From assembly GCA_003344405.1 (NCBI GenBank), contig NOWV01000188.1:1-64000 (forward strand): a stretch of 64,000 nucleotides of DNA, given 5' to 3'. Shown here piece after piece: positions 1 to 20,220 of this stretch. Source of the DNA: Trichoplax sp. H2 (taxonomy: Eukaryota). The position numbers and the translations under genes are program-made. The notes beneath the pieces are model-generated. The model did no database searches. It saw nothing but the letters and a program-made list of their open reading frames with translations, and was not told the origin of the DNA. Numbering within the stretch: the first letter of the stretch is position 1; every line of letters begins with the position of its first letter.

Positions 1-249
1 TCCTGTAAATTAATTCAGTAAAGCGAAAATAGTTTGCTTGTATACGGTTCATTAAAGTTCAAGTTATTACGACTTGATACGGACGCAGGGAATTGCAAGC
101 TCTAAAAGAAAAATTTAGTCAGTTATGCATGTACATTAAATTGACATTGATTAGTTTGAATTGCTTGAACAGTTGTGCTAGACCTAAAAATGACGAAAGT
201 GAAACTACTGAACATTTAGTGTACAACCTCTCTTTGGTACTTAGCGCTA

Positions 250-1720
250 GGGTACAGTACTGTACTGTACTTTTACGTACTGTACAGTACAGTACACGAG
301 CAGTTTTTGCCTTTTGGAAAATGCACAGTACACAGTACTGTAGATACTTACAGTACTGTACAGTACAGTACAGCACAGGGTACAGTGCAGTACTGTACAG
401 TGCGTAGCAGACAGACAGAGGATAGTACTGTACTACACTATAGCGTGGGCACTGTACACTGTACACTCAGTGTACAGTACAATACGGTTGTGCATTACAT
501 GTCTTGTCCAACGATCATTTCACTGTTTCAAAACCCCGGAGTTTTTATTAAACTCAAGATTCTTTTGCCATATTTTTCGTCGATAGGATTGAGATATGGT
601 GTTTCAAACTACAGTATAGTGCACCATGATGTGGTCATGACTGAGCAACTTTATCATAGTGTGGGAAAATTGGGCGTTTTCGTTATGCAAATTCTATTAA
701 TAGAGCATACTGACAATACAGTACAGTGTGCTGTACGTACAGTGTACAGTATAGTAAACGGAATGGAGAAAGGGTATCACCCGCTCATATCGCAAATGAC
801 CTGCTACGAAATGCGGTATCGTACGTAGATTTCATAGCAACTGATGAGTGCAAAGTACAATTACAAGAATATAAAATACAACATACGTACGCTAATGGCG
901 TATACAGTACGGTATAACATAGACAGTATGCCAACGAAATTAAATAAATAAATAAATAAATAAATAAAGACTAGTCGCTGTTAAGACCATAGTATGCTGT
1001 ATATTGCTGTAGAATCCAGTACTATACGGTAGTGTTAAGTTTGTAGGTTTGAATTTTGTTTATGGTGAGTACAGTACAGTACTGTACAGTATGTGACATC
1101 TGTTCTACAGTTCTGCTCAAACTGTGTTATGTGCTGGTTGCATAGCCATTGTCATTATACTGTACTGTACACAGTACAGTCGCACGTACGTACGTACAGT
1201 ACAGTACTGTACAGTGCACTTTTGAATTAATTATTTTTATTATTATAAAAATCTTTCAAATTTAATTTTTATTATTTTTATTGCCTGAATGATACTACGG
1301 TACTACTAACTATAAAACGAAAACGTTCAATGTCCACCGGAACTTTTTTCTGACCTCTAGTCATCGCGTTAAGAAAAAAACATAGAAGACATAGTACTGT
1401 ACACTGTACAGTACAATTGCATCCTTCTTTTGAAATATCAGCTCATTGTACAGTACTGTACCGTACAGTAGAGGAAAGCTCTTTTTTTTTTTTTAATTAA
1501 CTTTCATGGTTCCTAGTTTTATGGTGTTTATGCATTATGTAAACAGTGCAGTACTGTTCTCTTTTCTGTGTACTGTACATTCATAGTACATTTGACCTCT
1601 ATGATAGAGACATTGATAGTCAGCAGTAGCGTTTAATATTTGTAGTACAGTACAGTAGAAGCTTAGTACGATACGGTACTGTATGTTTATTGTTTACTTT
1701 ACAGTACTGTACCATGCGTT
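250..1720. repeat. Low-complexity tract of TACAG/CTGTA pentamers forming palindromes (TACAGTACTGTA)
   Basis: Many copies of acagtactgt/tacagtac/gtactgta; these cause the spurious Y/S/T/V/Q/C-rich ORFs at 93-828. Confidence 0.85.
941..968 (+). repeat. (TAAA)n microsatellite
   Basis: taaataaataaataaataaataaataaa seen directly. Confidence 0.9.
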
Positions 1721-4284
1721 TGGCTTTTTGACATACTGTCCAGTTTTGGAACGATCGAAGGACGCAGACTGAAAAATCGATCGAAATTTTACCAAGATGA
1801 AAACGAATAGCAGTGGATATTGTTAATGGGACGTACAGTACAGCATCATATTCGACTGTTCATAATACAGTATTATCTATCCGTATATTGTCTGTTTCTA
1901 TAGAACAGCAAAGCTGACTAGATACAATGGAGAAAAGGACGATAGAATAAAATTTGTGCTGTGCGTCCACTCCGTACAATATCTTTGTCACTTGTTATTA
2001 TTATTATTTTTTTTTTTAAATAACCTTCTCGGGATGGATGGACTTGACTCTTGAACAAGAAAAATATTGATGAATCACAGTAATTAAGGCGTAGAGTAAA
2101 GCATCCTGTAGAGAGTACAGTATGATACACTGAGTGTGTGACGGAAACAGTCAATGCAGTAGAAATAAAAGTCCTGACGTCTTGACGTCTTCACCACCTT
2201 CAACGGCCTTCTAATGATATGTTCTGTTTTCTATAATTAATTATTTTTTATTTTATTTTATTTTAACTGACGTACAAGATTTGATTTGCAAGTCAAATAA
2301 GTTAACCGCCCGCCCTCTTTCAACTTTATGCTTTACATGACTGTTGATACGGACTTTCGATGTCTAGTACCAAGTCCAACGGCAAAAATTGAAAGAAAAA
2401 GTACCACCATTGTCGCTTAGTTACTACCAATTAGATTTTAACCCTCCCACATCTTTACTAACACGTCAGTCTTATCGCAGTAATTGTTTGTCTATCTCTG
2501 TACACAATACTGGTTCAAAGGTAAAGAGAGAAAGGAAAAGAGGAAAGACGTGTACAGTGAATTATTGTACTGGAAGGACAAAAAAAAAAAAAAATCCCGC
2601 GGGCTCATTATTATCTTTATTACCATTCAATCGCATGTACAAATCGAGGCCTCCCCACCCTCTTTCAAAAGTAAAATAAAGAAACCTGCAACAGGTTGAT
2701 AAATCTGAGTTATACTGTACCTGTGCTAGTTGTAAGTTTAGATCGCTACTCGAGATATTTTTCAAGACGTCAGTAAAAGCTTCAACTAATATACGTTTGT
2801 AAACTGTGCCGAACGAAAGATTGTGAAGAGAACGTTCTTCAAGCGGAATTATGACATACGGTTAGAATGACATTGTAACTATCGTATCCCCTAACATGCT
2901 TAATAATGATGATTATATTAGCGATGTAAGTTAGCGGACGTATATTTTACTTTTTCTTGATGCTGTCCCTGTACAGTGTACAGTGTGTTGTAAAATGGTA
3001 ATAGAATTTTTTGCTACTAACACGGATGCAGTTTTTATGATTTTTGAATTTATCAACACCGAAAATATTCTCCTTAAATATCATATCATGATGATCAACA
3101 AGTTGTGTTTTCGCTGTTTGGGCAAGATATCGCCGTCCAACTCGACCTCCGACACTGTACAGTAATCCATCAACGGCGAGTCTTAATTGCACGATATATC
3201 ATCTTGGGCATGCGATAATACACGAATAAAAATAGTAATTGTAATGAATCGTTCAGTAGTGATTGAGATACGTTCGTCAATGTACTGTATTGTACGGTAT
3301 AGTTCTATAAACTGTAAATCGTGTCTTGTTTCACTTTTTGAACCTTTTGAACCAACTCAAACATGTTGGCAATCCCCTTGTATCGCCTTTCGCTGCATCC
3401 TTTTCATAATCGTGATTGAGTATTTACTACTTTTTAGTTAACTTTACAACAGTACTATAACATTAACTAACTATGCCAATCGTATTTCACTTGGTTGTTG
3501 GACTCATTACAGCTTTATTTTTGGCCCACGTACCGTACCTATGGTATCATGCACACTCGGGGACTTGTAAATGACAAGTCCCTGATAACGGCCTTTTTTT
3601 TTCATCGTCAATTCTGCATGAAATTTTGATTATTACGGTCAAAATTAAAAAAATTTTTTTTGGACGAAAATTATCCTAGACATTGGTCTTCACGATATTT
3701 AACAATCTATTAAGATTAAAACCACTTGGATAGTAGTTTACAATGTCATGTCATGAAAGGTGAAAATTATTTTCATTTCTCTTGATGTTGCTTGTAGCAT
3801 TGCTAAAGGTATAATGGGTTTGTATAGTGATGGGAAAAAGCGATGTCATACTAGTGGAGTCGCCAAGAGAATTTAAAGTGAAGTAAATTATAAATAGAAA
3901 TAGTAAGGTGATCCTTTCCGTGTCATCTGCCAACTGATTACAGTCTTCTAGTAATGTCGGAAAGTTCCAAGCTGTTATTTATTCATGTTACCATTAATAC
4001 TGCATTTGAGTTGCAATGGAAGACATCACTTGTAGTGATTGGAATTACTGTCGATTTTAAACATAACCTATCGGTTTGTATGAAAGCTACAGTAATGAAT
4101 TGAACACATTAAACAAGTTGACAATAATAGTGATACTATAGCTTCATTTTGAAAGTGATAAAAAATTTAGAAAATCGAATTAAAAACTTGTGTTGTTTTA
4201 TGCACTGCATACGCATCATTAAGTTCGTAACCTATTGAACAATTTTTGTTTTTTCATTTTCCTTTTTCTTTCTGTTTTTAATGA

Positions 4285-5230
4285 TGTACAGTACTGTATT
4301 GTACGGTATGCTACAGAGTACTGTACGGAACATGCTGTTCATACTCGAGGTAGTCCACTTCAGTAGTGTATAACACATGCCACAGTATCGTACCGTACGC
4401 GCATGATCAATCCAATTCTTGCCAACAGCGTGAGCTACAGTATTGTATCTACAGTAAAGTACACTGTAAACTGTACATTGTACTGTACACTACAGCGCGG
4501 TATAGTGAAAGCAGTGCAGTGTACTGTACTGTACTGTACTGTACGTTCAACTGCGATGCTTGCATGGATCTGACTGGTTTGGTTTTTTTTCTGTACCATA
4601 CAAAACACTACAAATTTTCCGGATTCGCCAAAAATGTCTCGTCTACTAGGTTACTGTAGTACAGTACTGAAACAAATTTTCCGGATTCACCAAAAATGTT
4701 TCGTCTACTACGTTACTGTAGTACAGTACTGAAACAAATTTCCGGATTCACCAAAAATGTCTCGTCTACTGTACAGTACTACGTGACTGTAGCACAATGG
4801 CTATCAGTACTCTAACTGCATTATACTGTACTTACTGTACTGTACTGTAAGACCTTTCTTTTAGCCGTGTAATTACTGTACAGTACTGCAGTTTTGGATA
4901 GTACTGTGGACAGCACCTTTCGTATCATAACATCTTGTCACTTTCGGGCAATATTTTTTCTTTAGAATTACAGTACAGTAAAGCTATCTTAGAAATGATA
5001 TATTACGTTGATATGCTATGGAATGGAACAACTTTCAACTTCATCAGTATTTACTTATTAACATCACTGGTTGATTCTTTTCAAAGTGACAAAATACTTG
5101 GGACACACACAGTACTGCACCATACAATATTATTATTTTCTACTGTATTTTTTATTGAGCAAAGTGCACAGTACAACGTATCCCAGACTACAGTACTACG
5201 TACCGTAGTGTGTGTACTGTACTGGAGATA
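4285..5230. repeat. Second TACAG/CTGTA palindromic low-complexity tract
   Basis: Runs such as gtactgtactgtactgtactgtac (about 4520-4545) and repeated tacagtactg. Confidence 0.8.
4609..4775 (+). repeat. Tandem repeat, ~62-bp unit, ~3 copies
   Basis: caaatttt(c)cggattc(g/a)ccaaaaatgt(c/t)tcgtctact recurs at about 4611, 4674 and 4735. Confidence 0.9.
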
Positions 5231-5552
5231 CTGCAAAACAGGAATGCGATAGAGCTCGAATGGTGTTCTGCTATGCTGAACCAATTTGGCATTTTCGAGT
5301 AACCGCGACGCCTTCTTGATTAACTTAACAGTATGCATCATCAGTTCGCTGCATTTATAATAGCACAGTAATTTCCCCGCGGAGAATGTGCTACCTCGAT
5401 TAAGGTTGAAATTGTTGCTTCACCCCATGTACATAAAAGTAGCTTCGTTTATGAATGACTCGAGTAAATACAATACAGTACATGAGAAATAATAGGATTT
5501 CATAGCTATTACTGTACAGTACTTGACTTATCGACATTATTTGCTTTTACAG

Positions 5553-8500
5553 ATTCCACTTTAACAAGCGACGAGGAAGGGATTCAACCTGATCAGTGCA
5601 AAACGCCCAATAGCGTTAATGGCGAAAATCGTCGTCAACAGGCATACGATCATGCTGGTAGTAATAGTGCTAATCGACCTAGCGGTAAAATGCGCTTGCG
5701 ACCATGGTTAGAAGAAAAAATTACCGCACAAGCTATTCCAGGATTATGCTGGATGGATAAAGAGAACAAAATATTTCGTATACCTTGGAAGCACGCTGCT
5801 AGACAAGGTTGGAGTGTCGATGAGGATGCTTCACTTTTTCGTGCTTGGGCTATCCATACGGGCAAATTCTCTCCTGATCGTGACGAACCGAAACCGAAAG
5901 TATGGAAAGCGAATTTTCGCTGCGCGCTCAATTCTCTCCATGATGTCGAACAAATCACCGAAGATAGCATAACTAAAGGAAATGATGCCGTCAAAGTCTA
6001 TCGATTTTTAGATGGAGGCAAAAGGAAAGGAGGTACGAAAAACGCTATAGTATTACACGCCGACATGATACCACGAAATGGACTTATTTAGCAACGATAA
6101 TTATGGCAATATAAAAGCTACCGGTAGTCGAGTACACCATACATTACCAAAAATCACATAGTGGTTCCATACATGTTTGCAAACAATTTCCAGTAGATTA
6201 CTAAGATACTACGTCTTTCCCGTTGCTATTGATGTGTTATATTGACAAGCCTTAATGATGGTAAATGATAATTAGTTTAACCTTGCACTTGCCTAATTTT
6301 TCATTTTTGGGGCCAATTTTACTATAGATCTTAGTGATCCGATTTATAAGAATGTTCTGAAAAAGCTACGCTGTGAAGAGGTTGGTTCTTTATTAAATCA
6401 CCTAGCCTTGCTTTCATGCCATGTTGATGTTTATAAATATTTGTTATCATTATTAGATTTAGCGAAACATGAAAATAGGATAGAATTATCTTGCAGTACT
6501 TAAATATTGAATATCGATATTGAATGTTGTGCATTTTTGCACTACATCGATCAAAACGATATCAATTACTGAAAAGTTTTACAATATCTCATTAGCAAAT
6601 TATACAGTCGAAAATGTTATGAAGATTTCCTACACATCTCTACACATGAAGCACTTGCGTCATTCAAATGTTTTACCATAGGTTTATACTACTAATACTG
6701 AATATATATCTATATTTTTTTTTGCATATAAATGTATCAATCAAATTTTAAAGGCGTCCGTTATGGGTGGTCAGGATTTATCTATCATGAAAGGTACATA
6801 TGTAAATCTATGTAGCAGATCTTATCTTATTGTATTCGAAAAAGATTCACTCGACAGTCTACGGTCGTTCCTATTAGACTTAAAACTACTTATGTATGCA
6901 GTTAGTAGCGATCAACATAGCGAAATTCATATGCATATGTTGTCAACAATTGAAAGATTACCTAAGATTTATGCAGTTCTTTGTGAGGACATACGATTAG
7001 TTTCTATATTTGTGATAATATAATGTTATAATATAGATTCGTATCAATAATATGAATTGATATATTTAAGACTATCATCTTATTTTGCATAAAATCTAGT
7101 ATGACCTTATTCTCTGATTTATTTCTAGACGGTGGATTTGATATGAGTGCATCTAACGACTTAACAACATGCAAACTTGATGAATCGTAAGTAAAAATTT
7201 GAGTGCATATATATTTCGTAACGTCATTTCACAAGTCTGACTAGGTGTACAAGTTAATATACAGATTGTGAAGATATTTTTTATAAGTAATCATATCGTT
7301 ACCAAGTATTTCTAAACATATGGGCAATGCTATCTTAGCTTGACTATATATATTACATGGTATAGTGCTGTAGTACTATGATGTAAAATATTTTCGTAAC
7401 GCAGCGATTTTTATTTCAATACTTCAATTTATTATCTTTTAATAATTCATATTTTATGATCTCGTACAGACAGTTGAAAATTAATGTGTACTTTCAAAAA
7501 TTTTTTTGAATTTTAGAATAACTATTGACAGTAAAGGGGGTTGCTTCTTTTTTGAAGATAACGGCGTATGTATTCGAGTTAGTCAAAATGCCATACCAGA
7601 TCGTATTACTGTTTCTTGTAAAGTAGTAGTGGATACCTTTTACCAACGACAAGATGACGAGACCGTTCTTGGCAATATATTAAGTTTTGGTTTGCCTATG
7701 ACACGATTTGCTGAGGCAGTAACTCTTTGCTTACCACATCAAGGCTTTATAAACCACGAAAAGCAGGAGATCATTATCAAATATTCATCAGAAGCTGACA
7801 AGAAATGGCATGAATGTGAACTAGTTGATGTGTCGGAGCTAGCAAGGAGAACCCTTCCAGTTAATAAGCAGCAATTGTTCACATCTTACGCTGGCTGCAA
7901 GACGACATCTCTTACTTCATTTGTAGTTATTTCTAGGACGCGTATTAGTCGAGCTTCTTTTTCCTCTGCTGGTGGCCGTTTATCTTCTCATTATTCAAAA
8001 GATGTTTACGTCCAAGTCCCTGAAAAAACTTTCTCATCTGTGACTGAATTAATGTTACAAGTACGAAAGTATTGATCAATTAAAGTAACGGTTAAGATAT
8101 TCAAAAATTATTGGTAGACAACTTTTAAAAACTTAATTCTACTGTGTCAGTATTAGCATCTAAGCTTTGTCAAAGCATAGAGTTTTAAAATTTTTCATCC
8201 TTTGATAGGTTTCGCCAATCGAAAACGATGTAGCCAACGTTTGGGTTAGTCAAGAATCAAGAATTAGCCCTTTTGTTACTCTTAAATGTAATAAGAGCTC
8301 ACTAACTGGTCCAGTAACGCTATCTATACCTTTTACCACTGAGTGTTTAAATGATACTGCATTCGCTGCGTCTGCATTGATTTGCTTATCCTTGCAGCAG
8401 TCACCAACGGCAGTTGGTAAAGATAGTGATAAAGCTCGTGACAAAGATCGGAGTACTGATAGCATTGATTTGAATGACTCAAGCCGTACTCCTATTACCA

Positions 8501-10246
8501 AAAAGTCAACTAGTGGAGAGACTGAAAGCAAAGGAAACTTAAAAATTTTCTGCAAGAAATTAAAGGAAAGTGACTGGCAAGAAATTACTGACGAGGTTAA
8601 ACCCAGTATGAAACTCCTTAGTGATAGCATATCGTTCGAAACAAGAAAGCAAGCAACGTATGTACCTATATAGTAGTTGTAAAGGGAATAACTACGGCTT
8701 TTATTGTAATGAGATTATTTGCTTCATTTAAGTTATTGCACATGTAATATACGTGTTTATTCTTATTTTTAGGTATTTAATTGCTTTTACGAAAAACTCG
8801 AAAGATTTAACTTACAATTCTGTAAAGGCAATGTTTAATCGTGTTTGTATACCTTTGGTTCGCATGAGTGTTTTATACAGAGAAATGAACAATAGCTATC
8901 AAATCTTTGTTTTATGCTCATCGGATTCAGTCATTAGAGAAGTTACGCAAGATTTTGAAAAAAAGATGAGTGCGAAATGTATATATAATAGCAATTTACT
9001 TAAAATGGCTTACGGGGAACCATGTAAGATCAGTTTTCGTGGCAATTTGAAGCCTGCAACGGGCAATAAAAATGATGATTTCAAGCTAGTTTATAGGCCC
9101 AATCAATTACAAATAAAACAATTTGGTTTAGCCTGTCTGGATGTGTCTCATCCATTGAATGGTTCAATAGCGTTTGAATCATATTCAAATCAAACATTAA
9201 GAACATTATGGTCATGCGAAATTTCGTTTAATAGTACGGTGCCATCGGCTACTAAGGTACAAAGATTTAGCACATACTGCAACATGTACCAGTAGATTTA
9301 TACATATTGTCAAACATTAATATATATTTATTCGTTTTTGCTTATATCAGTGTTATTAAATGAATCATTTTTGCTTGCTTTAGTCATCTGTTACTACTGC
9401 TTCTATTCCAATCATAAGTGGGCCTTCCAAGTCAAGTGCTGAAACAAAATCTGTTTGGCCAGCATTTCCTACTCCTGCATTTAATGTAGATCCTTCGAGA
9501 GTCGATAATCATCCGACATGGCCAATATACGTGCAGCCATATCCTCACCTAACTATCCCTGCATCTACGACTGGTGGATCTGTTACTGCTCCAGCACTTA
9601 ATTTGAACTCCCCTTTAATGCAATCGCAATCTTTGACATTAATTCAACAAAATCATACGGCTTATGGCGTTCATACACCACTTCTATTACCAACTCATAC
9701 TTACCCACAGTTAAATTATAATCCAACATTAGTAAATATGCCGCAGTCATTATTGCATCATCCTATGCTGCCTTCTATTGCAAACGATTCCTTGCAGTAC
9801 CAATCTCCTTTTGCCGGATTAATGCCATTACCATATGCAGCACTCCAGAGACCAATGTTGAGCATTGGAATGCCATCTCCAGGTATATTGCAAGGAACAG
9901 AATTTTAAATACCATAAAACAGTTATAAGTACATGAATTTAAATTATTCTATAGCAGCTCAATTTATAATATTGTATATATTATATTAGAATTATTTAGT
10001 GAAAAGGTTTGGCCGGAAGTCGCCAAGCGCCTTTCAGGACGTTGGCGAGACCTCGCTACTGGCTTAAATATTAGTGAAAGTCATATTGACCAGGTAGATA
10101 AGAGCTGCTTAAATTCTGAAGACAAAGTTAACAAAATTATTTACATTTGGCGCCAACAAACATCTGGATTACCTGCTGAAAAAGTACAAGATGAATTTCA
10201 GCAAGCAATTAAAAAGTGTGGCTTTCAAATGAGTGAATTGAATTAG
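5553..10246 (+). CDS. IRF-ZU5-ZU5-UPA-Pro-rich-Death domain protein (spliced; 877 aa from Met 5690, ~926 aa with a candidate upstream exon)
   Basis: Exons 5553-6032, 7129-7186, 7517-8060, 8209-8657, 8773-9256, 9384-9882, 9990-10246, all with GT-AG boundaries and matching phases (1,2,0,2,0,1); stop TAG 10244-10246. The frame is open upstream of Met 5690 to an acceptor at 5552; candidate first exon ATGACATACG|gttaga at 2851-2860 is unproven. Confidence 0.8.
5690..6032 (+). CDS. IRF: IRF DNA-binding domain exon, IRF1/IRF2-like
   Basis: [11 protein letters not shown]...PGLCW...[13 protein letters not shown]...[11 protein letters not shown]...[12 protein letters not shown]...[10 protein letters not shown]: Trp cluster and the KANFRCA recognition helix, close to IRF1/2; followed by a basic KRK patch. 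Confidence 0.97.
7517..8657 (+). CDS. Tandem ZU5 domains (exons 7517-8060, 8209-8657)
   Basis: ZU5-A: TIDSKGG...[11 protein letters not shown]...[11 protein letters not shown]...W...SFVVISR. ZU5-[11 protein letters not shown]...VQVPEKTF...LQVSP...ISPFVTL...PVTLSIPF...WQEITD...ISFET. These parallel ankyrin/PIDD ZU5 motifs (GG.L.S, SPIVT, PIT.TIP, WEDITG, VSFTT). Confidence 0.85.
8773..9256 (+). CDS. UPA domain exon
   Basis: [12 protein letters not shown]...QIFVLCSSD...KISFRGNL...KLVYRPNQ...NGSIAF resembles the ankyrin/PIDD UPA pattern (PY.AKFVVF..., LRCFC..D, ..GNL) and lies directly after ZU5-ZU5. Confidence 0.72.
9990..10246 (+). CDS. Death domain terminal exon (not in ORF track)
   Basis: My translation: [85 protein letters not shown]. 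It fits the DD pattern (W..LA..L..S...ID.I....W......A...CG); phase-1 acceptor ttatattag. Confidence 0.85.
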
Positions 10247-12171
10247 TGCTTAATTATTTACTTATTTGTAAAATAAGATAAGATCCTTTTTAATACTTTA
10301 TTCAACTAACTTACGTATATCTTGCTATCATTACTGTAACACCTTAACAGCGACAGAAGAAAATATTTGGAGTCATGACGTACTTCAGGAAAATTTTAAT
10401 ATTGTTATTTGTATCAAATAGAATTTAGACATTCTGATCTATTATAGCGATACCTCGTAGTTGATAGATTCGCTTAAAGTACTTGTCATTGTGATATTCC
10501 TAGTAATATCGTATTATTGTAATAAATATGTAGCTATTATTATGAAATCGTTCATAATAACTTGTATAGGCGTAGCTCGAAATTTTATTCACATGTTTTA
10601 AGTAGTTACTCTATTACTTCCAAGATGAAATTGGAATATGGTTCGAGTTTGGCTCTAGCCATTTTAGAAATGTTATAACTAATTTCGTCTGCTTTTATTT
10701 GTATTATTTGATGTGTATGTCCTGCTTGGTACAAGATCAGGCTTCCTGCGATTGCCAAACATAACTATGTACAGTTAATATATACTGTAGTGGTAGTTAT
10801 ACCAATAATATTTGGATTTTTATGATAAAATGTAACTTCTAATTCTATCTTATTATAGTCGTTTTAACAGTATTATTTTATTCCTGAATGGTGTACGTAA
10901 AAGCGGTTATGAATTCTTCTGTAGTTTGATGGCTGAATGGTCTCAATTCTCAAAATGATAGACTACGGTTCAAATTGCCAGTTAGTTATTAAACTGATCT
11001 ACCGTAGTAGCTTAAACTAGAATATCCAAATTGTCCAGTCTGGTAGCATTAATATCATATTGTATAATAACTCCATATATGATTATCTATATTATCTTCT
11101 TGTATTACACGTATTACATGCTAGCTTCAGTTAACTTGCAAACAATTATATTGTGCCAGATATGATAAAAAGATTCTCATTCTTCCCAAAGAATAAAACT
11201 TTACTCGTGTATTGCACCTCCTGTTGTTTAATTAAGGCCTATAGTTATTCAGTAGGCATGGATATAGTATGGGATAGGATAAATAAATTTACATTTGTAG
11301 GATGATTTAGAATACACCTCTAAAATTACTTTCATTTATGGTATCTACAGTATTTAGCTAAAGTACCAGTAGTGTAACTATCAATTACAATAAATTCTAG
11401 TATCGCATATAGCACGATTGTGAAGATTACTTGTACAGTAACATTATTAAATCCTTGTAGTCGTACAATCGTATTTAGATATTTCGTTATCGACTGATTA
11501 ATTCATCAAACCTGTAGTTGATTAATTAATTATAAGCAAGATGCATGATCTTAGATTTTATTTTAATAAGGCTTCGACATGCTAATATGTAACTAAATGT
11601 CAGACTACACCAGCCACGCATGTACTCAAGTGTTGAGGTGTACGGTACTTAGAACTTTATATAACATATGATATATACAGTAACAACATCCTATTATCCA
11701 TAACCTCAACCGTAACTTTTATTGGAAGCTAGTTTTATAATAGCATCTCAATCACATAAGTTCTTATTTTACCATCAATTTAAGAATTACATTTTGATGT
11801 GCAAAGAAACAATTTTATTCGCACCCAATTTTCGCAATGCATAGTATAGATTAATTTCTAACTTCGGATGTTCTATTGCTATCAATATGAAAATTCAAGC
11901 GTTATCTTGTTAACAATTTAACATTTCAAAAATATATAAAGCTTATTCTTTGTTGTATTTTATTTATACATTATGCTAGACCCTTTGGCACCGTGAGATG
12001 GTTTGGAATAAGTAAGAAGTGTACGAAACAGATATATAATGCCTTGAAACCGTCTCATGGCGTAGTATAAAACGATAACTGATGTTCTAAACTAATAAAA
12101 ATAACGTTTATACTATATTGAATTTTGAAGTATGTTGGAAAAGCATAATAAAATGTTATTAGTGAAATTGT

Positions 12172-15100
12172 TTACGCTAAACGTTGTCTAAGCTTAACAA
12201 TTTCATTGAAAACCTCCCTAGTCACAGGAACTTTTTTACCTTGATCAATGCATATATAGGCTTGATCTGTTGATTTGCCATTTTGTCTGGCGTTGGTTAA
12301 TTTTAAGCTTTCATGCCCATTAAGAGAACAAGCTAATTGCTTTTGCAGCATATCAACGACCATAGATTGGATATATTTTGGGTCAATGTTGAAAATTTTA
12401 TTGGTTGGGCGTATTTTATCCGAATTGAAGTTGGTCTTACAAATCGTTTTTTCATTATGTCCTTCTATATCTGAATCCAGTGACGAACTAGATGCCAATG
12501 AAGTGACGCGGTAGAATTTTGATGATACAATAGTACTATCACTATCTGACGAACGGGTATCGCATCTACGAATTTTTGATGCTCCTTGATTGAAACTAGA
12601 GTTTTCATTATCTGAATCCGTTTCTTCTCGTGAAGGCCAACCACCATCTGATACATCGGAGCTAATCGAAGATGGATAGCTAGTGGCGGGTCGTCGATAA
12701 GTATTCGCTTTATCTTGTCGTAGTGAGTTATGACTTTTTATATCTAGCGATGACGAGTTACATGAAGAGTGTTTTAATCTATTTTTAGTGTTGGCAATCG
12801 TATGATCGAGATCATCTGTAACTGAATAATTCTGTACAGATACAACTTCTGTATAAACAGGGCCAGGAGGCTGAATTGATCTGGAAATCTCTGTGGTATT
12901 ACTATTGAATATTTTAGAAGTATACGAAACAGCATCCTTACATATATAATACTTAGTTTTACGTGAATGTCTAGATTCTACACTTGAGCAGGATAAGTAG
13001 CAGGATTCTTCTTCTGAGCTTAACGACGGTACAAATTCGTCTGCAGTTTGTAATGCAGTTTCATCATCAGAAGATATTTGAATAATATTAGGATTAAATG
13101 TACTAATAATGGATACATGCGTTTGACTCTTTACCTTGCTTGGAGAATATTTCGGTCCTTCGTCAGCAGTCAGTAAGATAGTATCACTACCGGAAGAAGA
13201 GTAATCCACATTACGTGCAGGTACAGAGTTCAATACCTGTGTTTTGCCATTATGGCGATTTTCTCGCGATTGGCTCACTTTGGGTTTAAAGTGAGACTTG
13301 ACTTCAATCTCGAATCCACCTTCTTCTGCAGTTAACAATTCTACATCTTCAGTGGATGAAGACGGTGATTCTGGCCTAGTTGATGCTTCTCTGTATGATG
13401 ATAATTCCGAATAATAATTGGGGCTCTTATTAGTGGAGTGAATTCCTGATCGTGCATTTAATTGTGAAGATCCATTAACTGAATATTTGATTCCAGTTTG
13501 TTCTTGTAGGTCCATTAGTCTTTTATTTTGATTTCGATTATCTGGCATAACCATTCTATTTGGAGTGTTACTGCTAACCATATTTGTACAATTTTGGTAT
13601 GTATGGAAGTTATCTCTTGTGCCAATTCGGTGACTAGAATTATTGCCTATGGATTGTGATCTATAATTAGCTGTGGGAGTAACACTACTGGTCAATCGAG
13701 TAGAGTGCAATTGTGGCATAGTGCTTTTATTTAAACCAGTCTGTTGTATTATATGAGCTTGAGCCGATGGCTTTTGATTGGAACCTATACCATTAGCGGT
13801 GTAAAGTTTTTCAGCATGATTTTGTTGAGGATTAGGTGCTAATATTCTAGAATGATGTGTATTAATTTGGGGCTGTTGAAACTGAATAGTGTTAACTGTA
13901 CTGTTGTTTCCGGAATACCGGCTAGTTTTAGGAATTTGGTCTGTAATGTAACTTTTGTTGCTGTTCTTCAATAAAACGTACTGATAATTTTGACTTTCCG
14001 GATTGCCTCCCAAACTTGGACCTCTTCGTTTTACCACCACTGATTTGGCTGACGTCGGCGAGACTAGGTTGGATGGCGTGAAATTAGCGTGTTTATCAGG
14101 AGAACGGGCAAGAGTAGGATAAAATTGGTATGACGGAACTTGTGCTCTACTAACCTGTCGGTCTGTAGCTGCCGCATTATCGGAAGGCATGGATGAAGGC
14201 GTACCTGGAGCAGATTTGGATCGCATAATTTTCCATAAGCTATCTTTGTTTTTTTCGCTATCAGGCTTAGATAATTTAAGTTGCGTAGATAACTGTTTAA
14301 GTAATGAAGTTGAAGAATGACTCTTATGGCTTTTTATAGGTAAGCCACGACGATCAACATGAGTTTTGGTCATAGTTGTTAGATCTTCAGATGTATCGGT
14401 ATGCCCTTCATTATCATTATAGATTGGTACATATCGTTCGTTATGCTTTGAGATTAAGGTATCAATTGGAACCATAACCACATCACCAAAAGGTGATGTG
14501 ATAGTATTTTCTGGAATATTTCCTTGTCTTTCATGGATATTATTAGTGAGTGGGCTACGAGAATTGTAATTCTGTGATATTACTGGCGAACGACCTGACT
14601 GAGAATGTCCAGATGAATTGGTTGTCGACAGCTTATCAGCAGCTCTTGTTATAAATGCCTTACTTCGATCTGAACCAGAAATACTAGAATTTTCCTCCCA
14701 TCCAAGAATAGAGCCTAAATTTTGTAATCGGGATACTAATTGTTGATCTTCTGTTGTATCACTTTCAGGCTGATCCAGATACATGGCTTGTTTAGCTGTA
14801 GCCATATCTCGGTACTGACCACCTAGGTTATTTTGAGGTATTTTAGAAGATAACGTACTTGTACTACTTCTTTGATCTAATCCATTAACTGACGAATGGA
14901 TAGATACATTATTAGAAGTGGCTTGATCTGAAAACGTTATTAAGTCACTGTTAAGGATATCATCCATAGATCTTTGTTTGGTATCCCTACTGACTTGGGG
15001 GCTAAATTTATTTCTAGGATTATGATGTGTTGGGGCTTCTTCTAAATCCACATCATAGTTGAAATTCTCAGCCATTACTTGATTCTTGTTCATAGTAAAT

Positions 15101-18100
15101 TCGTTATGATCATCTACTCTAATTAATTCATGATTATGATCGTGAATATTATAGGCAGAGTCGGATTTTCTATTCTGTATGAAATCGGTAGAGTCAGAAA
15201 TTGGAATTTCATTTCGTGTCCTGGTAACATGTTCAATAGTTCGCTGGTGTAGTCTTTTCTGTCCATTAGTTAAAGTTCCATTTACAGGTACACTATCAAG
15301 CTGCTTTTTGGGATTTGAATAATTTCTTTTATTGACGATATTAGCCGATGTATTGAAATCATCAACTTTAGTATCATTGGGGATCGATACAGCAGTTGGT
15401 AATATAGTATAGGTATCTTGGATACGATTGTTGGTAGATTTCTTAGGTGATTTCTTGTGTTTTATATTTGGCAATGCTTGTCCGTCACTTGATCGACGCG
15501 TATTACTTTTCCGGAAAGGATCTTTAGCAGATGTTGTCTGATCGCTAGCATTTAAACCAATAATTGGAACGATAGCTGATGTAATACAATCCGCTACTTT
15601 ATGTATTGATAATTTTCCACTTTGTGGTTTATCATGATCTTTATCAAGATCTTTGCTAGTCTTACCAGATTTTATAACTTTATCTTCAGGTGTATATTTG
15701 ATGTTACGCTCTCCTGAATTCTGTCTCGTATGCTTCTGCAATATCGAATTTCTGTTAGCGTTCGACACTGGTGCCGATGTATCATGAGACAACTTTTGAG
15801 ATTTATTATTGCGCCCACGTAGCTTCTGATTGATTAAAGTACTATCAACAAGAAGAGAAGACACTATGCTACTAATCCCTGAAGAACGAGGAACAGCATC
15901 AGTTCTTGATTTTGCGTGATCGCTTGATTGGTAAGATCTCGATGCCAGTGTTTCTGTATAAGCACTATGGCGTCGTGAAAGAGCTTTCTCGCGATTGTTA
16001 ACTGGAAGTTTTCGACGGGAATAGCTTACTTCATCCTCACCTGGCGTAATACGTTCCGCTGAATGTCTTTTTTCCCGAAGATAATTTTGGCTGTTATTAG
16101 CGATCCTTAATTTGGGCTGGTCGCTAACATTACCCCACTCCAATTTGGAAATTTTATTCGCAGTAACTTGCTGAAAAGTCTGATCAGATGCTAAATTTGC
16201 CTCCGTTTTCGATGTTGGAACCCGATGTTTCAGATGTCCTGATAGTTTGGCTTGCAATTCAGCAAAAGGTGTACTAGTAGATGAGTTTTCCTTACTTAAT
16301 GAGTGCTCTTGATCGATGCTGTTATTGGGGGCTCTGCTTTTGCGGATACCGACCGATTTATCGTAGTTCACGTTTGCAATATCATTGAAGGTTACAGCAT
16401 CCTTTGGAGTTGATGTTTCGGGTCCTTGAAATTCATTTTGGGGTACGCGGGCTGAGACATTTTGAAAACCTGTATCCATATCAACCAATGTATTTGGTGA
16501 TACATATAATTCTTCTTCTTGAATGTTGTGTGATTGGATACCTCTATCATTAGAAACATCTAACAATTTATTTGGTGCATCATCGAATTTCAATAAATTC
16601 ATTTCATCGTCATAATTCATGGACAGAATCTTATCAAGGACAGCTGTTGAGTATGCCTTCCTATTACAATTATCAAATTCTTCTGCTAGAACGTCGATTG
16701 CATCATCGAAAGAAATTAAATCTTTAATGCCAGTTTGATTATCCTGCGCTTGATACGATGGCTGTTCTGCAGCATTTTCGTTATGCCAATTTAATCCCTC
16801 TTGTGTAGACCAATAGGATGCTTCAACATTCTCTGGCCAACTAAGCTGTTCACCATGAGAATTTTGGGTATCAGACTGATTGAAACCTTCGGAAATCGGC
16901 GGTAACCTGCTTGCACTGTTGTCACTATCAGGCGCAACGAGTTGATGAAGATTTTCTACATTGATTAATTGACTGTTATTCGTATCCATACTAATGCACG
17001 TATTCCAACTAGCATCATTTTCACTTAAAGAGGATACCATTTCTGTATTTTTTTGAACTTCAGGGCTTGATGATGATATATTATAATTACCTCTGTTTAC
17101 CGCCTTGCATGGCACAGCTACCATGATATCGGCATTTTCGTTTGCAGGCATTGCTTCATTAATTTCAGGGTAATAGTTTTCACTAGCCTCCATATCAATG
17201 TTATTACCAGGATTTAAATTTGAATACTCGCAGTTATTACTCTGTTGGATGGAAGAAATTGGGTATTCCTGACTACTATGGTTTATAATTTGGTACTTAT
17301 CAGCCATTTCTATTTCTTCCCCTTGATTAGAGATTCGATTGGAAGTGCGTTCTTCATCACGTAGATATTGCACGTACTGGGACTTGAGTGAATCATTTTT
17401 AGGAAAACAGTTTTGGATTTCATTGACTTGATTTATCTGATTTTGCATGACTTTTTGATCGTTCTCTTGCAATAAGATATGGCCTTCTGTATCGTTATTT
17501 CGATCGAAGTGCAATTGAGAAGCACTCCTTTGACTTTTTAACATGGTATAGTTATGATTAGTGCTTTGTGGGTTAGTTATCCAATCAATATTGTCTATGA
17601 CAGTGTCAGTACTAAGTTGTTGGTCTGCCATTACTCTTCGTCCGTTTTCCTCTAAAAATTCCGCAGACGAACGAGCCTGTTGATCTCGATAATTAATATC
17701 ATAGTCAATTAGTGCGGGCGAGTAAGGGCTATCATCTTGGTTTTCTACTTTCTCGTTAGTACCTGGTGAATGCATCTTAAGATTATTATTCAATTTCGCA
17801 GATTGTTTCCTTGCTGCGCTTGTCTGATCTTGAAGCGCTGCTTTAGACTCATGATCCAGCCTTGGCATCGATCTTTCAATATATTGATATGTTTCATGAT
17901 CTGTAATAGAATTTTGGGCATCGGGAATAATCTGATCAATTACTTGAGTATCATAAAAGTCCAATGGATGGGATTGACCTCCACCATCTTTCTCCTTTAC
18001 TGCATTATTTTGAAATCTTTTAACCAATTCTGGCATGTACTTTTCAACAAACTGAAGGAAACGAAGTTGATCTGGACTCTGATCTAGAGGGGCAATTGGA

Positions 18101-20220
18101 GGTTGATTGCCAGCTTGGTGATTTAGTACATCCTGATTATCCTTTTGTGAATTAGTAAAATTGAAATGCATTAATACGGTCTTGTTGGTAATGTTTAGCT
18201 ATCTTATGAGATCTACGTCCATAATTGGCTAAGTCACGAACCTCCGTGTTACTATAGCCTCCGACAAAAGATTCAAGATTAGCTGTATGATCCAATCTTT
18301 CTCTATTCTGTTCTACTGATCGTAATCCATTTTCACTATCCAGCTCAGGCGTATGCTTTCTAAGTAGTTCACGAATACTACGCTCATCTTGGGTAATGTT
18401 ATCAATGTTGGAGTTGCTATAATTTCTTACTGTAGGTTTCTGCCCATCTAATTCTGTAGTGCTTTTTATTTGTGTATCGCGATTGCGATTTTCGTTAACT
18501 ATATCTGATAAATGGCTATTCTCTAATTGACGAAATTGTGATCGATCTTGCAATTGGCTCAAATTTGGGGAATTGGTACGCTTGGCAAGTGATGATGTTC
18601 TATTTTGACTATCCTCATTATTACTATTTTTGATAGCTCGCATTTCGTTTCTAATACGCTGGCGTTCCCGTAACAAATCTTGAGAATAACTTTGTTGGTT
18701 TACAAGACGATCTTGAGTAGCGATATGGTCTGGATTGATATGTTGATATTGCCTGAATGTTTGCGCATCGGTATCTTTCTTCGAGACGGCATTATATTTT
18801 CCTTTTGTTTCTACTTTAGATTTGACTGCTTGGTTAGAATATCCTTGTTGATCCTGGTATCTCCAATGTGATTCAGTAGTTGGCTTTTCGATTTTAATGG
18901 TGGAAGAGCCAAATTTATCTTCGTATTCTTTCTTACCCCTAGGATAAAGGTGTTCGCTACTGTTAACATCTCTTACTGGCTGTAATTTTGCTTCATTTCT
19001 AGTGATTTCCGAAGATTCATCTGGATTTGGAAATTTGTCTAAAACTTCGTTGCTATTTGCCATCGCTGAAGATTCAACACCATGTTGCTGATCCTTGTTC
19101 TTCATTTGATACATTCTTATTAATTCAGGCATTTGTTGCTTAATAAAATCCGTAAACTTGATAGGCTGAGTTTGCAAAGGTGCATCTGCTTTGTTGAATG
19201 TTTCCGTATTCATTTGCAGATTCATTGCTTGCTGTAGGGGTCTTGCTGCTGGCAACGTTGGATGTCTATTAATATTCTGATGACTGGATATAGCCGAAGC
19301 AGAATTAACGCGTAAAATACCTTTGCCTGTTCTGGTTAACTCTCTTTGCTTCTGTTGGTCAGCACTACTTTGTTTTGAATTTTGACGACTTTGTGATTGA
19401 TTAGATACGTATTGATTGCGCAATCGAATATCATTACCTTTATCGTCGCGGATATTTGGCTGATGTAAATTATCAGTATCAAGCGGATTTTGATGACTTC
19501 TAGGTCTAGATCTTTGCTTATCCATAGTACCAACAGGTTGATATAATCGTTGAGCTTGCTTATTCATAGCCACTTTTAAGCTATTGCTAGGATACTGACT
19601 TTTAATGACAGGTGCACCTTTCTGAAATTGTTGAGCACTTGCTGTAGATGAAGCCACGTCTATCTGCTGCTTAGATTGATCATGATTAAATTTGTCGGTG
19701 AAATTGCTTCTGGTTACACTGTCCATCAACATTTGGGTTGGTTTGATATTTTGGTTCGCAGGATTTTGTTCTTGATTTTGAAAATGAACTCGTACAGAAT
19801 CTTTTTGTCCATTATCGGCATTGCCATATGTTCGATCTCTCACACTGTACTGATCATTCTTTTGACTATTTAGGTTATTTCCTAGTCTAGATATGTCACT
19901 TGAATTAATAACCCTTTTCTCTATATTTTTGAGATTATGTTCCTGGTATACGTCATTTCTTCCATTTTCTCCTACGGACTGATTGAAATAGACTCTACGA
20001 TCACTTTTCTTCAATTTAATTTGATTATCATTGTCTTCATCTAGGTTTTCATCAATAACTGAGGCATCAGCCGTTGTTACAGGAACAATATCATGTATAT
20101 CGTTATTTACATTTTCATCAGCAGACAGCCTTTCTTGATTATTAGCCTTTCGAGCCTTGCCCTTCGATTTCGATAGGATTAGAGCTTGATTCTTTTTGTT
20201 ATACGCTATTCTGATTTGTA
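12172..20220 (-). CDS. Giant low-complexity (S/N/Q/D-rich) tail of the BCR homologue: 728-aa and 1999-aa ORFs probably joined by a ~100-nt intron
   Basis: Stop-free ORFs of 2.2 kb and 6.0 kb in AT-rich DNA; the first is continuous with the end of RhoGAP. Candidate intron GAG|gttcgt (18241) ... tactaat ... ag| (18142 or 18133) restores the frame. Confidence 0.7.

Follow-up and report, generated by a model that had tools for sequence, protein, structure and literature searches.

A placozoan gene fuses an IRF DNA-binding domain with a predicted ankyrin-like ZU5-ZU5-UPA module and death domain

One placozoan (Trichoplax-type) gene is spliced to one mRNA that encodes an interferon regulatory factor (IRF) DNA-binding domain together with a ZU5-ZU5-UPA module and a death domain. 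The gene lies in the window that we analyzed, a stretch of 64,000 nucleotides from Trichoplax sp. H2 (contig NOWV01000188.1). The RNA-supported model has ten exons between 2759 and 10246 plus a 3' untranslated region (Table 1), and its reading frame of 957 codons is open throughout. A preliminary description, made from the sequence, had proposed the order IRF1/2-type DNA-binding domain, ZU5, ZU5, UPA, Pro-rich region and death domain, and this order was borne out by Pfam, by alignment with ankyrins and by fold matches.

Table 1. Features of the IRF-ZU5-ZU5-UPA-death domain gene, in window coordinates.
Feature	Position	Strand	Remarks
5' exon with start codon	2759..2860	+	ATG 2851-2853; coding in the last 10 nt only; donor GT at 2861
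IRF exon	5553..6032	+	short N-terminal tail, predicted complete IRF1/2-type DNA-binding domain, basic KRK patch
Linker micro-exon 1	6328..6380	+	53 nt; GT..AG joints on both sides; in phase
Linker micro-exon 2	6754..6793	+	40 nt; public model has a longer, RNA-unsupported exon at the same place
Linker exon	7129..7186	+	58 nt; Asp- and Gly-rich
First ZU5 (ZU5N-like) and beginning of the second	7517..8060	+	Pfam ZU5, E 3.5e-12
Second ZU5 (ZU5C-like), with charged Ser-rich insertion	8209..8657	+	Pfam ZU5 and ankyrin-3 alignment
UPA-like domain	8773..9256	+	collinear second stretch to ankyrin-3 6m3p_E
Pro/Ser/Leu/Gln-rich spacer, 166 residues	9384..9882	+	no domain recognised
Predicted death domain and stop TAG 10244-10246	9990..10246	+	Pfam Death, PDB sequence matches, fold matches
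3' untranslated region	10247..10900	+	three of four runs (X4, X8, X14) have unbroken contig coverage of 9988-10900

The exons were joined on RNA contigs from four runs (X4, X7, X8 and X14), which came from four studies and carried two organism labels. The preliminary description had listed seven exons, those in Table 1 other than the 5' exon and the two micro-exons. All seven were bordered by AG and GT, and when joined they gave 2771 nt in a single open frame ending at the TAG. The five joints from the linker exon onward (7186>7517, 8060>8209, 8657>8773, 9256>9384 and 9882>9990), two of which had been singled out for checking against RNA (7186>7517 and 9882>9990), were each found in all four runs. 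The direct join of 6032 to 7129 that the seven-exon model needs was found in none of the four. Contigs from every run carried the joints 6032>6328, 6380>6754 and 6793>7129, and the exon list was thus short of the two micro-exons as well as of the start exon. The micro-exons together add 93 nt, and therefore the reading frame was kept. In total, all nine exon-exon joints of the model were found on contigs with GT..AG borders, eight of them in four of four runs and the first in three of four; these joints are evidence at the level of contigs, which do not show single molecules running from the first to the last exon. In one X14 contig of 2453 nt, the IRF exon and the first ZU5 exon were separated by 153 letters, a spacing that accommodates the three small exons. 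Contigs with ends exactly at 5553 and 6032 were present in runs X4 and X7.

The gene did not begin at 5553, as had been proposed. The 5' exon was joined to the IRF exon (2860>5553) in three of the four runs, with a contig from run X8 spanning 2759-2859, and the pattern ATGACNTAYGGT from this exon was present once in the window. In-frame stops precede the ATG at 2851. Three of the four runs also had a loose end ahead of 5553, corresponding to an alternative 5' exon absent from the window. At the other end of the gene, the contigs of run X7 covered 10286-10812 of the 3' untranslated region, among the pieces listed, and the longest contig of this region (from X4) continued for approximately 800 letters beyond the end of the examined stretch. 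A convergent open reading frame on the minus strand ends at 12172, downstream of the gene.

The fusion appears to be the main product of the locus. The opposite case, in which most product is an IRF-only form ending at 6089-6091 and a ZU5-death domain form made from an internal promoter, with the joined contigs representing minor read-through or a path taken by the assembler, strikes us as the least probable of the explanations that we considered. The predicted stop at 6089-6091 is present, in frame with the unspliced IRF exon (ORF 5486..6091). The gaps between exons are longest in the intron region after the IRF exon, and low-depth contigs lie within it (approximately 12 versus 149 in X4, and approximately 11 versus 409 in X7); because these contigs cover the intron, there may be a minor unspliced form ending at that stop. 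In X14, depth climbed toward the 3' end, from 75.8 (IRF exon and first ZU5 exon) to 457 on the last exons, which could reflect either 3' bias or additional transcripts of the 3' part. It can also be said for separate products that contigs are no proof of single molecules, and that the public gene model needed RNA-unsupported filler exons in the linker region. Against separate products, the three bridging joints had depths of 124-404, similar to those of the flanking exons and far from the value of approximately 12 for the intron contigs, and the micro-exons retain the frame exactly. The preliminary description had considered an IRF exon polyadenylated on its own; we found no tailed contig of this exon, and splicing from its donor was present in every run. 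The IRF exon and the body of the gene were similar in depth in three of the four runs. Lastly, the IRF, ZU5 and UPA exons each recurred in related records, with a longest contig of 5486 nt in all three cases.

The fused protein was already in the public proteome under a name that is silent on its C-terminal module. The locus is annotated as RDD38230.1, 'Interferon regulatory factor 2' [Trichoplax sp. H2] (P0001, 1016 aa), with IRF and ZU5 as its precomputed Pfam families. It represents the same fusion from the same locus and agrees exactly with the RNA-supported model over 181 residues at the N-terminal end and 762 at the C-terminal end; it differs in having 73 middle residues from exons without any RNA joint, in place of the 14 in the RNA-supported model. 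Related placozoan-like records contain exon-shaped open reading frames that are 81-90% identical, including P0013 (88% to the first ZU5 exon) and P0016 (81% to the UPA exon), and the similarity ends at the same exon borders. Among the differences between runs listed within the coding sequence, four of five were synonymous. We count these two patterns, both read from sequence comparison, as pointing to selection on the gene. We found no description of an IRF with a ZU5-ZU5-UPA-death domain architecture in the literature searched, and none of ten other IRF-bearing proteins (558-1778 aa) returned by a word-based search had a ZU5 or Death family. The claim of novelty therefore stands in a narrower form: the combination is apparently undescribed, that is, unreported in the papers searched, and not unseen.

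The DNA-binding domain is predicted to be intact and of the IRF1/2 type. The IRF exon matched Pfam PF00605 over profile positions 1-104 of 105 (E 4.6e-40; 136.6 bits, with a cut-off of 27), and a search of PDB sequences matched the IRF-2 DNA-binding domain at E 3.1e-46. The structure model of this domain superimposed on IRF-2 bound to DNA (2irf_G; TMt 0.94, rmsd 0.9, 64% identity), and its fold also matched that of IRF4 (Z 17.8). In an alignment of 34 sequences, every column that was at least 90% conserved had the consensus residue in the placozoan protein. These columns include six Trp (W55, W70, W82, W90, W102 and W121 in P0001) and the R-C-A-x-N-S helix (R126, C127, A128, N130 and S131), a set which we take, from the structures of IRF-1 and IRF-2, to include residues that contact DNA. 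As in vertebrate IRF1 and IRF2, the domain lies close to the N-terminus with a basic patch behind it, but everything after that differs. The next 58 residues, encoded mostly by the three tiny exons, form an Asp/Gly/Lys-rich linker (8 Asp) that was poorly ordered in the structure model.

The ZU5-ZU5-UPA module is, by sequence, nearest to the ZU5N-ZU5C-UPA tandem of ankyrins. The IRF domain and the first ZU5 were clear from the per-exon Pfam scan, and support for the second ZU5, the UPA and the death domain required more than that scan. On P0001, Pfam PF00791 (ZU5) matched two stretches (E 2.6e-16). The ZU5-ZU5-UPA part aligned collinearly with an ankyrin-3 chain (E 7.6e-12) and with ankyrin-2 (E 8.7e-11), in two stretches that run across ZU5N, ZU5C and UPA. 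The ankyrin-2 alignment (chain residues 24-257) spans ZU5N and ZU5C, and that with ankyrin-3 passes through exon 8209-8657, where it is broken at the insertion. Ankyrins were the sole solved proteins matched at E below 0.001, accounting for five of the eight rows at E up to 10 (E 7.6e-12 to 2.9e-4). The UPA assignment is a tentative part of this reading. Its match to ankyrin-3 6m3p_E (query 299-488, chain 286-471) had a modest i-Evalue of 0.0047 and that to ankyrin-2 an i-Evalue of 0.18; exon 8773-9256 by itself reached no better than E 1.1, and neither per-exon nor whole-protein scans matched Pfam UPA or UPA_2. The Atlas clusters nearest to this exon have ZU5/UPA families (scores 0.91-0.96), which we treat as a lead only.

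The C-terminal exon is predicted, from sequence and from the structure model, to form a death domain. Pfam PF00531 (Death) matched this exon at E 1.1e-4 and 22.6 bits, exactly the gathering cut-off, and scored 17.6 bits, below that cut-off, in the whole-protein scan. Sixteen of its 19 weak matches to PDB sequences were death domains. In the full-length model, residues 929-1016 formed six helices (pLDDT 79-93), and a model made from the last of the seven originally listed exons alone had no death-domain fold. The best fold match to residues 929-1016 was the death domain of PIDD, in the PIDDosome (2of5_H; Z 9.9, rmsd 3.2, 86 aligned), tied with those of RIPK1 (9.8), FADD (9.8) and ankyrin-G (9.5). 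Among the rows listed, seven matches over 929-1016 had Z of at least 8; one was a CARD complex and six were death domains (PIDD, RIPK1, two entries for FADD, ankyrin-G, and a TNFR1/TRADD/RIPK1 complex). A further match at Z 9.4, to the death domain of p84, had a model range of 53..1016. Lower matches included the death domains of UNC5H2 (Z 7.9 only) and of NF-kB p105 and p100 (Z 7.7 and 7.6).

The scaffold had been called PIDD/ankyrin/UNC5-type; the ankyrin part of that label held at the level of sequence, and the likeness shown to PIDD and UNC5 was in the fold of the death domain. The domain order is shared with the ZU5N-ZU5C-UPA-death domain of ankyrins (ankyrin-B 4d8o, ankyrin-G 6m3p and ankyrin-R 3ud1). 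Ankyrin repeats are absent from the whole-protein Pfam scan and the IRF domain is in their position, the ZU5C insertion is longer, and the 166-residue spacer lies between UPA and the death domain. In ankyrins, it is the first ZU5 that binds spectrin. The UNC5 netrin receptor was rejected as a counterpart, as the Pfam scan gave no Ig, thrombospondin or transmembrane segment and there are two ZU5 domains, not one. PIDD1, the core of the PIDDosome (LRR-ZU5-ZU5-UPA-DD), shares the order ZU5, ZU5, UPA, death domain, but the placozoan protein has no leucine-rich repeats by Pfam.

The likeness to PIDD1 raises an alternative in which the protein would process itself, as do PIDD1, NLRP1 and CARD8. Autoproteolysis at a ZU5 would yield an IRF-bearing N-terminal fragment and a UPA-death domain or ZU5-UPA-death domain fragment with separate fates. 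The autocleavage triplet of PIDD1 and FIIND proteins is His-Phe-Ser (or Ser-Phe-Ser) at the end of a ZU5. There is one S-F-S triplet, at residue 361 of the RNA-supported model in the connector between ZU5N and ZU5C, and FIIND-type clusters were among the Atlas neighbours (score 0.91), both of which would fit such processing, as would the domain order and the top rank of the PIDD death domain among the C-terminal structural matches. However, there were no H-F-S triplets in the whole protein, no PIDD or FIIND chain came within E 10 in the sequence search, and the module aligned with ankyrins, the residues at both ZU5 ends being ankyrin-like and not His-Phe-Ser. To our knowledge, ankyrins do not cleave themselves. 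We consider self-processing improbable, if marginally less so than separate products.

Another alternative accepts the fusion and places its C-terminal half in the nucleus. The half would be no latch but a module for constitutive self-association or cofactor recruitment that replaces the IRF-association domain by which other IRFs pair on DNA, with the Pro-rich spacer as an activation region and with neither tethering nor cleavage. A C-terminal IRF-association domain is present in IRF3-9, and membership in the family does not require one. None was found here: at E up to 1, the whole-protein Pfam scan listed no families besides IRF, ZU5 and Death. Death domains oligomerize, and the best structural matches were all death domains from oligomeric complexes. 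The spacer was Pro-rich as claimed (26 Pro in 166 residues), gave no Pfam match with E of 1 or less and had a pLDDT of about 30-40 in the full-length model; with four acidic and four basic residues it is almost uncharged and resembles an activation region, and a basic patch follows the DNA-binding domain. Ankyrin-type ZU5-ZU5-UPA tandems, in contrast, belong to cytoplasmic scaffolds and receptors and are not known from nuclear factors. A nuclear role of this kind seems to us rather unlikely, although it is much better placed than self-processing.

We favor, as a tentative explanation that falls somewhat short of an even chance, one spliced fusion gene whose product is a latent, signal-gated IRF. 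The preliminary description had offered, as a conjecture, that signalosome assembly or tethering to the cytoskeleton might be coupled to IRF transcription. In our version, the ZU5-ZU5-UPA-death domain half would silence the DNA-binding half or keep it out of the nucleus, either because the two halves mask each other within the molecule or because a ZU5 ligand anchors the protein at the cell cortex, and the death domain would recruit the protein to a signalling assembly of death domains. Two events, alone or together, might then activate it. Clustering driven by the death domain would gather several DNA-binding domains, which could bind cooperatively to repeats of GAAA-type elements; proteolysis within the linker, which is exposed and rich in Asp, would liberate the DNA-binding domain and its basic patch. 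Masking would involve contacts between modules, and these could not be read from the full-length model since the pLDDT of the ZU5-ZU5-UPA part was about 30.

A latent IRF of this kind would work like, and not be built like, some known immune regulators. NF-kB p105 and p100 and Drosophila Relish join an immune DNA-binding domain to an inhibitory C-terminal module that has a death domain at its end, and their activation is latent and depends on processing; ZU5-UPA-death domain modules likewise show autoinhibitory behavior. What the placozoan protein shares with them is a single chain in which a DNA-binding domain is followed by a module for protein interaction and, at the C-terminus, by a death domain. 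It differs in that an IRF domain and ZU5-ZU5-UPA stand in place of the Rel-homology domain and ankyrin repeats, and in that its processing is hypothetical.

We know of no interferons or canonical Toll-like receptors in placozoans. A more specific version of the latent-IRF explanation, which is possible but doubtful, is a one-protein placozoan pathway derived from an ankyrin gene by exon shuffling. Its IRF would be a subunit of a death-domain signalosome or would be anchored to the spectrin cortex through the ankyrin-derived ZU5, and the DNA-binding half would move to the nucleus once the death-domain complex assembles or once a caspase-type protease cuts the Asp-rich, micro-exon-encoded linker. 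If the product is a latent IRF, then it would be the IRF counterpart of p105 and Relish, and would show that signal-gating of an IRF is possible without an association domain driven by phosphorylation. The fusion could couple death-domain signalling directly to gene control.

The DNA-binding domain (DBD) of the IRF and the domains downstream of it are encoded by one mRNA in one open reading frame. All seven exons that the preliminary description had placed between 5553 and 10246 were bordered by an AG acceptor and a GT donor, and together (2771 nt) they formed a single frame open as far as a TAG stop codon. We compared contigs from four sequencing runs (four studies, two organism labels) with positions 2500-10900, leaving out the repeats at 2500-2604, 4241-4282, and 4506-4552. 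One run is recorded as RNA; three were guessed to be RNA, yet contain spliced forms. From the IRF exon onward, every exon-exon joint listed in the table had GT..AG borders and was found in all four runs, bearing out the proposed splices 7186>7517 and 9882>9990. The direct splice 6032>7129, proposed as well, was in none of the four sets of contigs, from which rare variants get dropped. Because the joints via 6328-6380 and 6754-6793 were seen and 6032>7129 was not, the real transcript includes two micro-exons, which total 93 nt and preserve the reading frame. A minor isoform that skips them in frame may occur and is compatible with contig data. The seven exons and their common frame held; the micro-exons and the start exon had been missed. 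A 2453-nt contig from run X14 had both the IRF exon and the first ZU5 exon; the 153 letters separating them match the three small exons in size. Once the 5' exon is included, the ORF has 957 codons without an internal stop, and its ATG is preceded by in-frame stops.

Features of the IRF gene and of neighboring sequence (a>b, joint to the next exon, with the number of runs containing it)
Feature	Position	Strand	Joint (runs)	Remarks
Start exon	2851-2860	+	2860>5553 (3/4)	ATG at 2851
IRF exon	5553-6032	+	6032>6328 (4/4)	Pfam IRF at 5555-6031, E 4.6e-40
Micro-exon 1	6328-6380	+	6380>6754 (4/4)	53 nt
Micro-exon 2	6754-6793	+	6793>7129 (4/4)	40 nt
Third small exon	7129-7186	+	7186>7517 (4/4)	
First ZU5 exon	7517-8060	+	8060>8209 (4/4)	Pfam ZU5 at 7518-8060, E 3.5e-12
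Second ZU5 exon	8209-8657	+	8657>8773 (4/4)	weak Pfam ZU5 at 8209-8655, E 0.14
UPA exon	8773-9256	+	9256>9384 (4/4)	no Pfam match
Pro-rich exon	9384-9882	+	9882>9990 (4/4)	no Pfam match
Death-domain exon	9990-10246	+		Pfam Death at 9992-10243, E 1.1e-4; TAG at 10244-10246
Convergent ORF	12172-18198	-		2008 codons, Ser/Asn-rich
ACTGTAC-type repeats	1-1000, 2500-2604, 4241-4282, 4350-4850			low complexity

We consider it very improbable that the fusion transcript is not the main product. Contigs do not demonstrate single molecules, the stop at 6089-6091 that would terminate an unspliced IRF exon is found in the window, and the intron after the IRF exon holds contigs, at low depth (about 12 versus 149 in X4 and about 11 versus 409 in X7, both sequencing runs). 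Depth climbed toward the 3' end in X14; in the other three runs the IRF exon and the gene body had similar depths, contig depth being a poor measure.

An alternative first exon was joined to 5553 in three of the four runs, where its loose ends measured from 60 up to at least 255 letters; an in-frame ATG lies within its final 30 letters. Sixteen letters from this exon had no match in the whole window at up to one mismatch, which places the exon over 5.5 kb upstream or at another location. Much of the first intron (2861-5552, 2.7 kb) was covered by low-depth contigs (about 26 in X4 and about 9-12 in X7). Base differences and small indels in them were numerous from run to run, and unspliced RNA, carried-over DNA, or a transcript missing from the annotation could account for these contigs. 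Another contig, found in each of the four runs, touches two short AT-rich sites (8246-8266 and 10516-10533) that are separated in it by 31 other letters and flanked by unrelated sequence; it is probably an unrelated transcript with short AT-rich words in common. RNA contigs of the IRF gene extend beyond 10900 toward a single open frame on the opposite strand that is convergent with the 3' end of the gene. The ACTGTAC-type repeats encode long 'YSTV/YCTV' runs in several frames.

The fused gene model was already in a public proteome. The first ZU5 exon was 100% identical to RDD38230.1 (1016 amino acids, Trichoplax sp. H2), which is named 'Interferon regulatory factor 2' and has IRF and ZU5 as its precomputed Pfam families. 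Mapped to the window, RDD38230.1 has all seven exons and the start exon and, in the long gap downstream of the IRF exon, three further exons. It agrees with the RNA-supported model over the first 181 and last 762 residues; between these, residues 182-254 (window about 6383-6985) make up 73 residues, versus 14 in the RNA-supported model. No RNA joint in the four runs backs these bridging exons, the RNA using the two micro-exons instead. The RNA-based exon model is a correction to the public gene model, in which the label 'IRF2' conceals two-thirds of the protein.

The identity of the IRF domain is beyond doubt, and the DBD is intact. In addition to the Pfam match, it matched the IRF-2 DBD (E 3.1e-46) and, in an alignment of 34 sequences, retained all columns conserved at 90% or more, including six tryptophans and the R-C-A-x-N-S helix. 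The modeled domain (pLDDT >90) superimposed on DNA-bound IRF-2 with a TMt of 0.94, an rmsd of 0.9, and 64% identity. It is followed by a linker with 8 Asp in 58 residues.

The region after the linker matched ankyrins. We used the 492 residues from the first ZU5 through the end of the UPA exon, in one piece, as a query against all solved chains. Ankyrins made up five of the eight rows at E up to 10 and every row below 0.001: ankyrin-3 (E 7.6e-12), ankyrin-2 (E 8.7e-11 and 2.3e-10), and ankyrin-1 (E 1.1e-4 and 2.9e-4). The match consists of two collinear stretches parted by a charged, Ser-rich insertion; the first spans ZU5N and ZU5C, and the second (i-Evalue 0.0047 for ankyrin-3 and 0.18 for ankyrin-2) covers the last ZU5C strands and UPA. 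This second stretch is the sole sequence support for UPA: the Pfam UPA models did not match the exon or the whole protein, and the UPA exon alone reached E 1.1 against solved chains. AlphaFold2, applied to the complete public protein, gave a pLDDT of about 30 for both the ZU5-ZU5-UPA part and the spacer, because the alignment had no homologues. Judged by its sequence, the module appears to be a complete ankyrin-type ZU5-ZU5-UPA tandem. Language-model neighbors of this part, which we treat as a lead only, were ZU5/UPA, UNC5B, DTHD1-like, and FIIND clusters (0.91-0.96). Self-cleavage of the PIDD/FIIND type is improbable: the His-Phe-Ser triplet is absent, and the residues at the ZU5 ends are ankyrin-like.

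The protein ends in a death domain. The Pfam Death match in the exon-by-exon scan (22.6 bits) equaled the gathering score exactly, and the whole-protein scan gave 17.6 bits. Of 19 weak sequence matches in the PDB, 16 are death domains. In the full-length model of RDD38230.1, residues 929-1016 formed six helices (pLDDT 79-93), and nearly all structural matches listed for them were death-fold, with Z values that are modest for helical bundles: the PIDD death domain of the PIDDosome (9.9), RIPK1 (9.8), FADD (9.8), ankyrin-G (9.5), UNC5H2 (7.9), MyD88 (7.8), NF-kB p105 (7.7), and NF-kB p100 (7.6). CARD domains ranked below death domains. The death-domain exon folded alone, without an alignment, gave a poor model with merged helices (mean pLDDT 72.6) that we set aside; with it, the best Foldseek E was 1.1 and VIA-align found just generic helical bundles (Z up to 7.4). 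Of the 166 spacer residues that separate UPA from the death domain, 26 are Pro and almost none are charged. Together, the RNA joints, the ankyrin alignment, and the death-domain fold matches uphold the order first proposed for the single ORF (IRF, ZU5, ZU5, probable UPA, Pro-rich region, death domain). Pfam profiles recognized IRF, ZU5, and Death and were silent on UPA, and predicted structures matched known folds for IRF and the death domain, with the middle module at low pLDDT.

The gene is expressed and under purifying selection. Four exon-shaped ORFs, all from genomic records, came up in a search of shorter proteins. Two correspond to the IRF exon (90% and 84% identical), one to the first ZU5 exon (88%), and one to the UPA exon (81%). 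For three of the four, the longest contig was 5486 nt, which suggests that they lie on one shared contig. Similarity ended precisely at the exon borders of the window and vanished in the read-through tails, indicating that at least one diverged relative retains the same exons. Among the coding differences between runs that were listed, four of five were synonymous (8 further differences lie beyond the listing).

In a word-based search of proteins of 558-1778 amino acids (E up to 0.001), 11 proteins were returned, and IRF and ZU5 were combined solely in the window's own. The others were plain IRFs, IRFs with C2H2 zinc fingers, and one fish IRF-DENN model. The zinc-finger proteins (P0007-P0011; 1307-1477 amino acids) come from five bivalve species and have many fingers; the IRF-DENN model (P0002), from a catfish, may be a mis-fusion. 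HMMER with the first ZU5 exon against 1.84 billion representatives found no genuine relatives. Its single hit (P0012, E 5.7e-12), from a bacterial protein with 21 MBG repeats in which one 31-residue stretch matched repeatedly, was rejected as spurious. That search also missed the window's own protein and so says little on absence. An Atlas search with the UPA exon alone gave no usable match. Absence of the fusion from other phyla does not follow from these limited searches. Within the accessible full text of open papers, subscription-journal work such as a 2009 survey of IRF evolution being outside the scope, we found no account of an IRF that also has ZU5, UPA, or death domains; the main text of a paper on placozoan immunity (PMC6321704) mentions IRF just generically in its available portion, and the available portions of PMC6723221, PMC11193209, and PMC8195603 describe no such fusion. 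The novelty claimed for the architecture is narrowed: the combination is without description in the literature searched, yet visible in public annotation under an uninformative name.

By its DBD the protein belongs to the IRF family; it carries modules of ankyrin, PIDD, and UNC5 and is not itself one of these. In UNC5 and ankyrin, ZU5-UPA-death-domain modules adopt a closed, autoinhibited arrangement; the first ZU5 of ankyrin is a spectrin-binding domain, and death domains assemble oligomeric signalosomes. Among immune DNA-binding proteins, NF-kB p105/p100 and Relish are held latent by their C-terminal half, at the end of which lies a death domain. The reading we judge most likely, and hold tentatively, is that the protein is a latent IRF whose C-terminal two-thirds would gate the DBD, and which may be switched on by clustering of the death domain, by cleavage within the Asp-rich linker, or by the two together. 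It is less likely, though a serious competitor, that the C-terminal half is a constitutive nuclear oligomerization or activation module that substitutes for the missing IRF-association domain.

Animal innate immunity has two main transcriptional outputs, IRF and NF-kB, and we know of no IRF with a death domain and latency imposed by its own C-terminal half. A latent IRF of this kind, occurring in one of the simplest animals, would be a test case for death-domain assemblies that reach DNA without kinase relays, and the protein offers a concrete case in which to examine how IRFs were regulated prior to interferon signaling.
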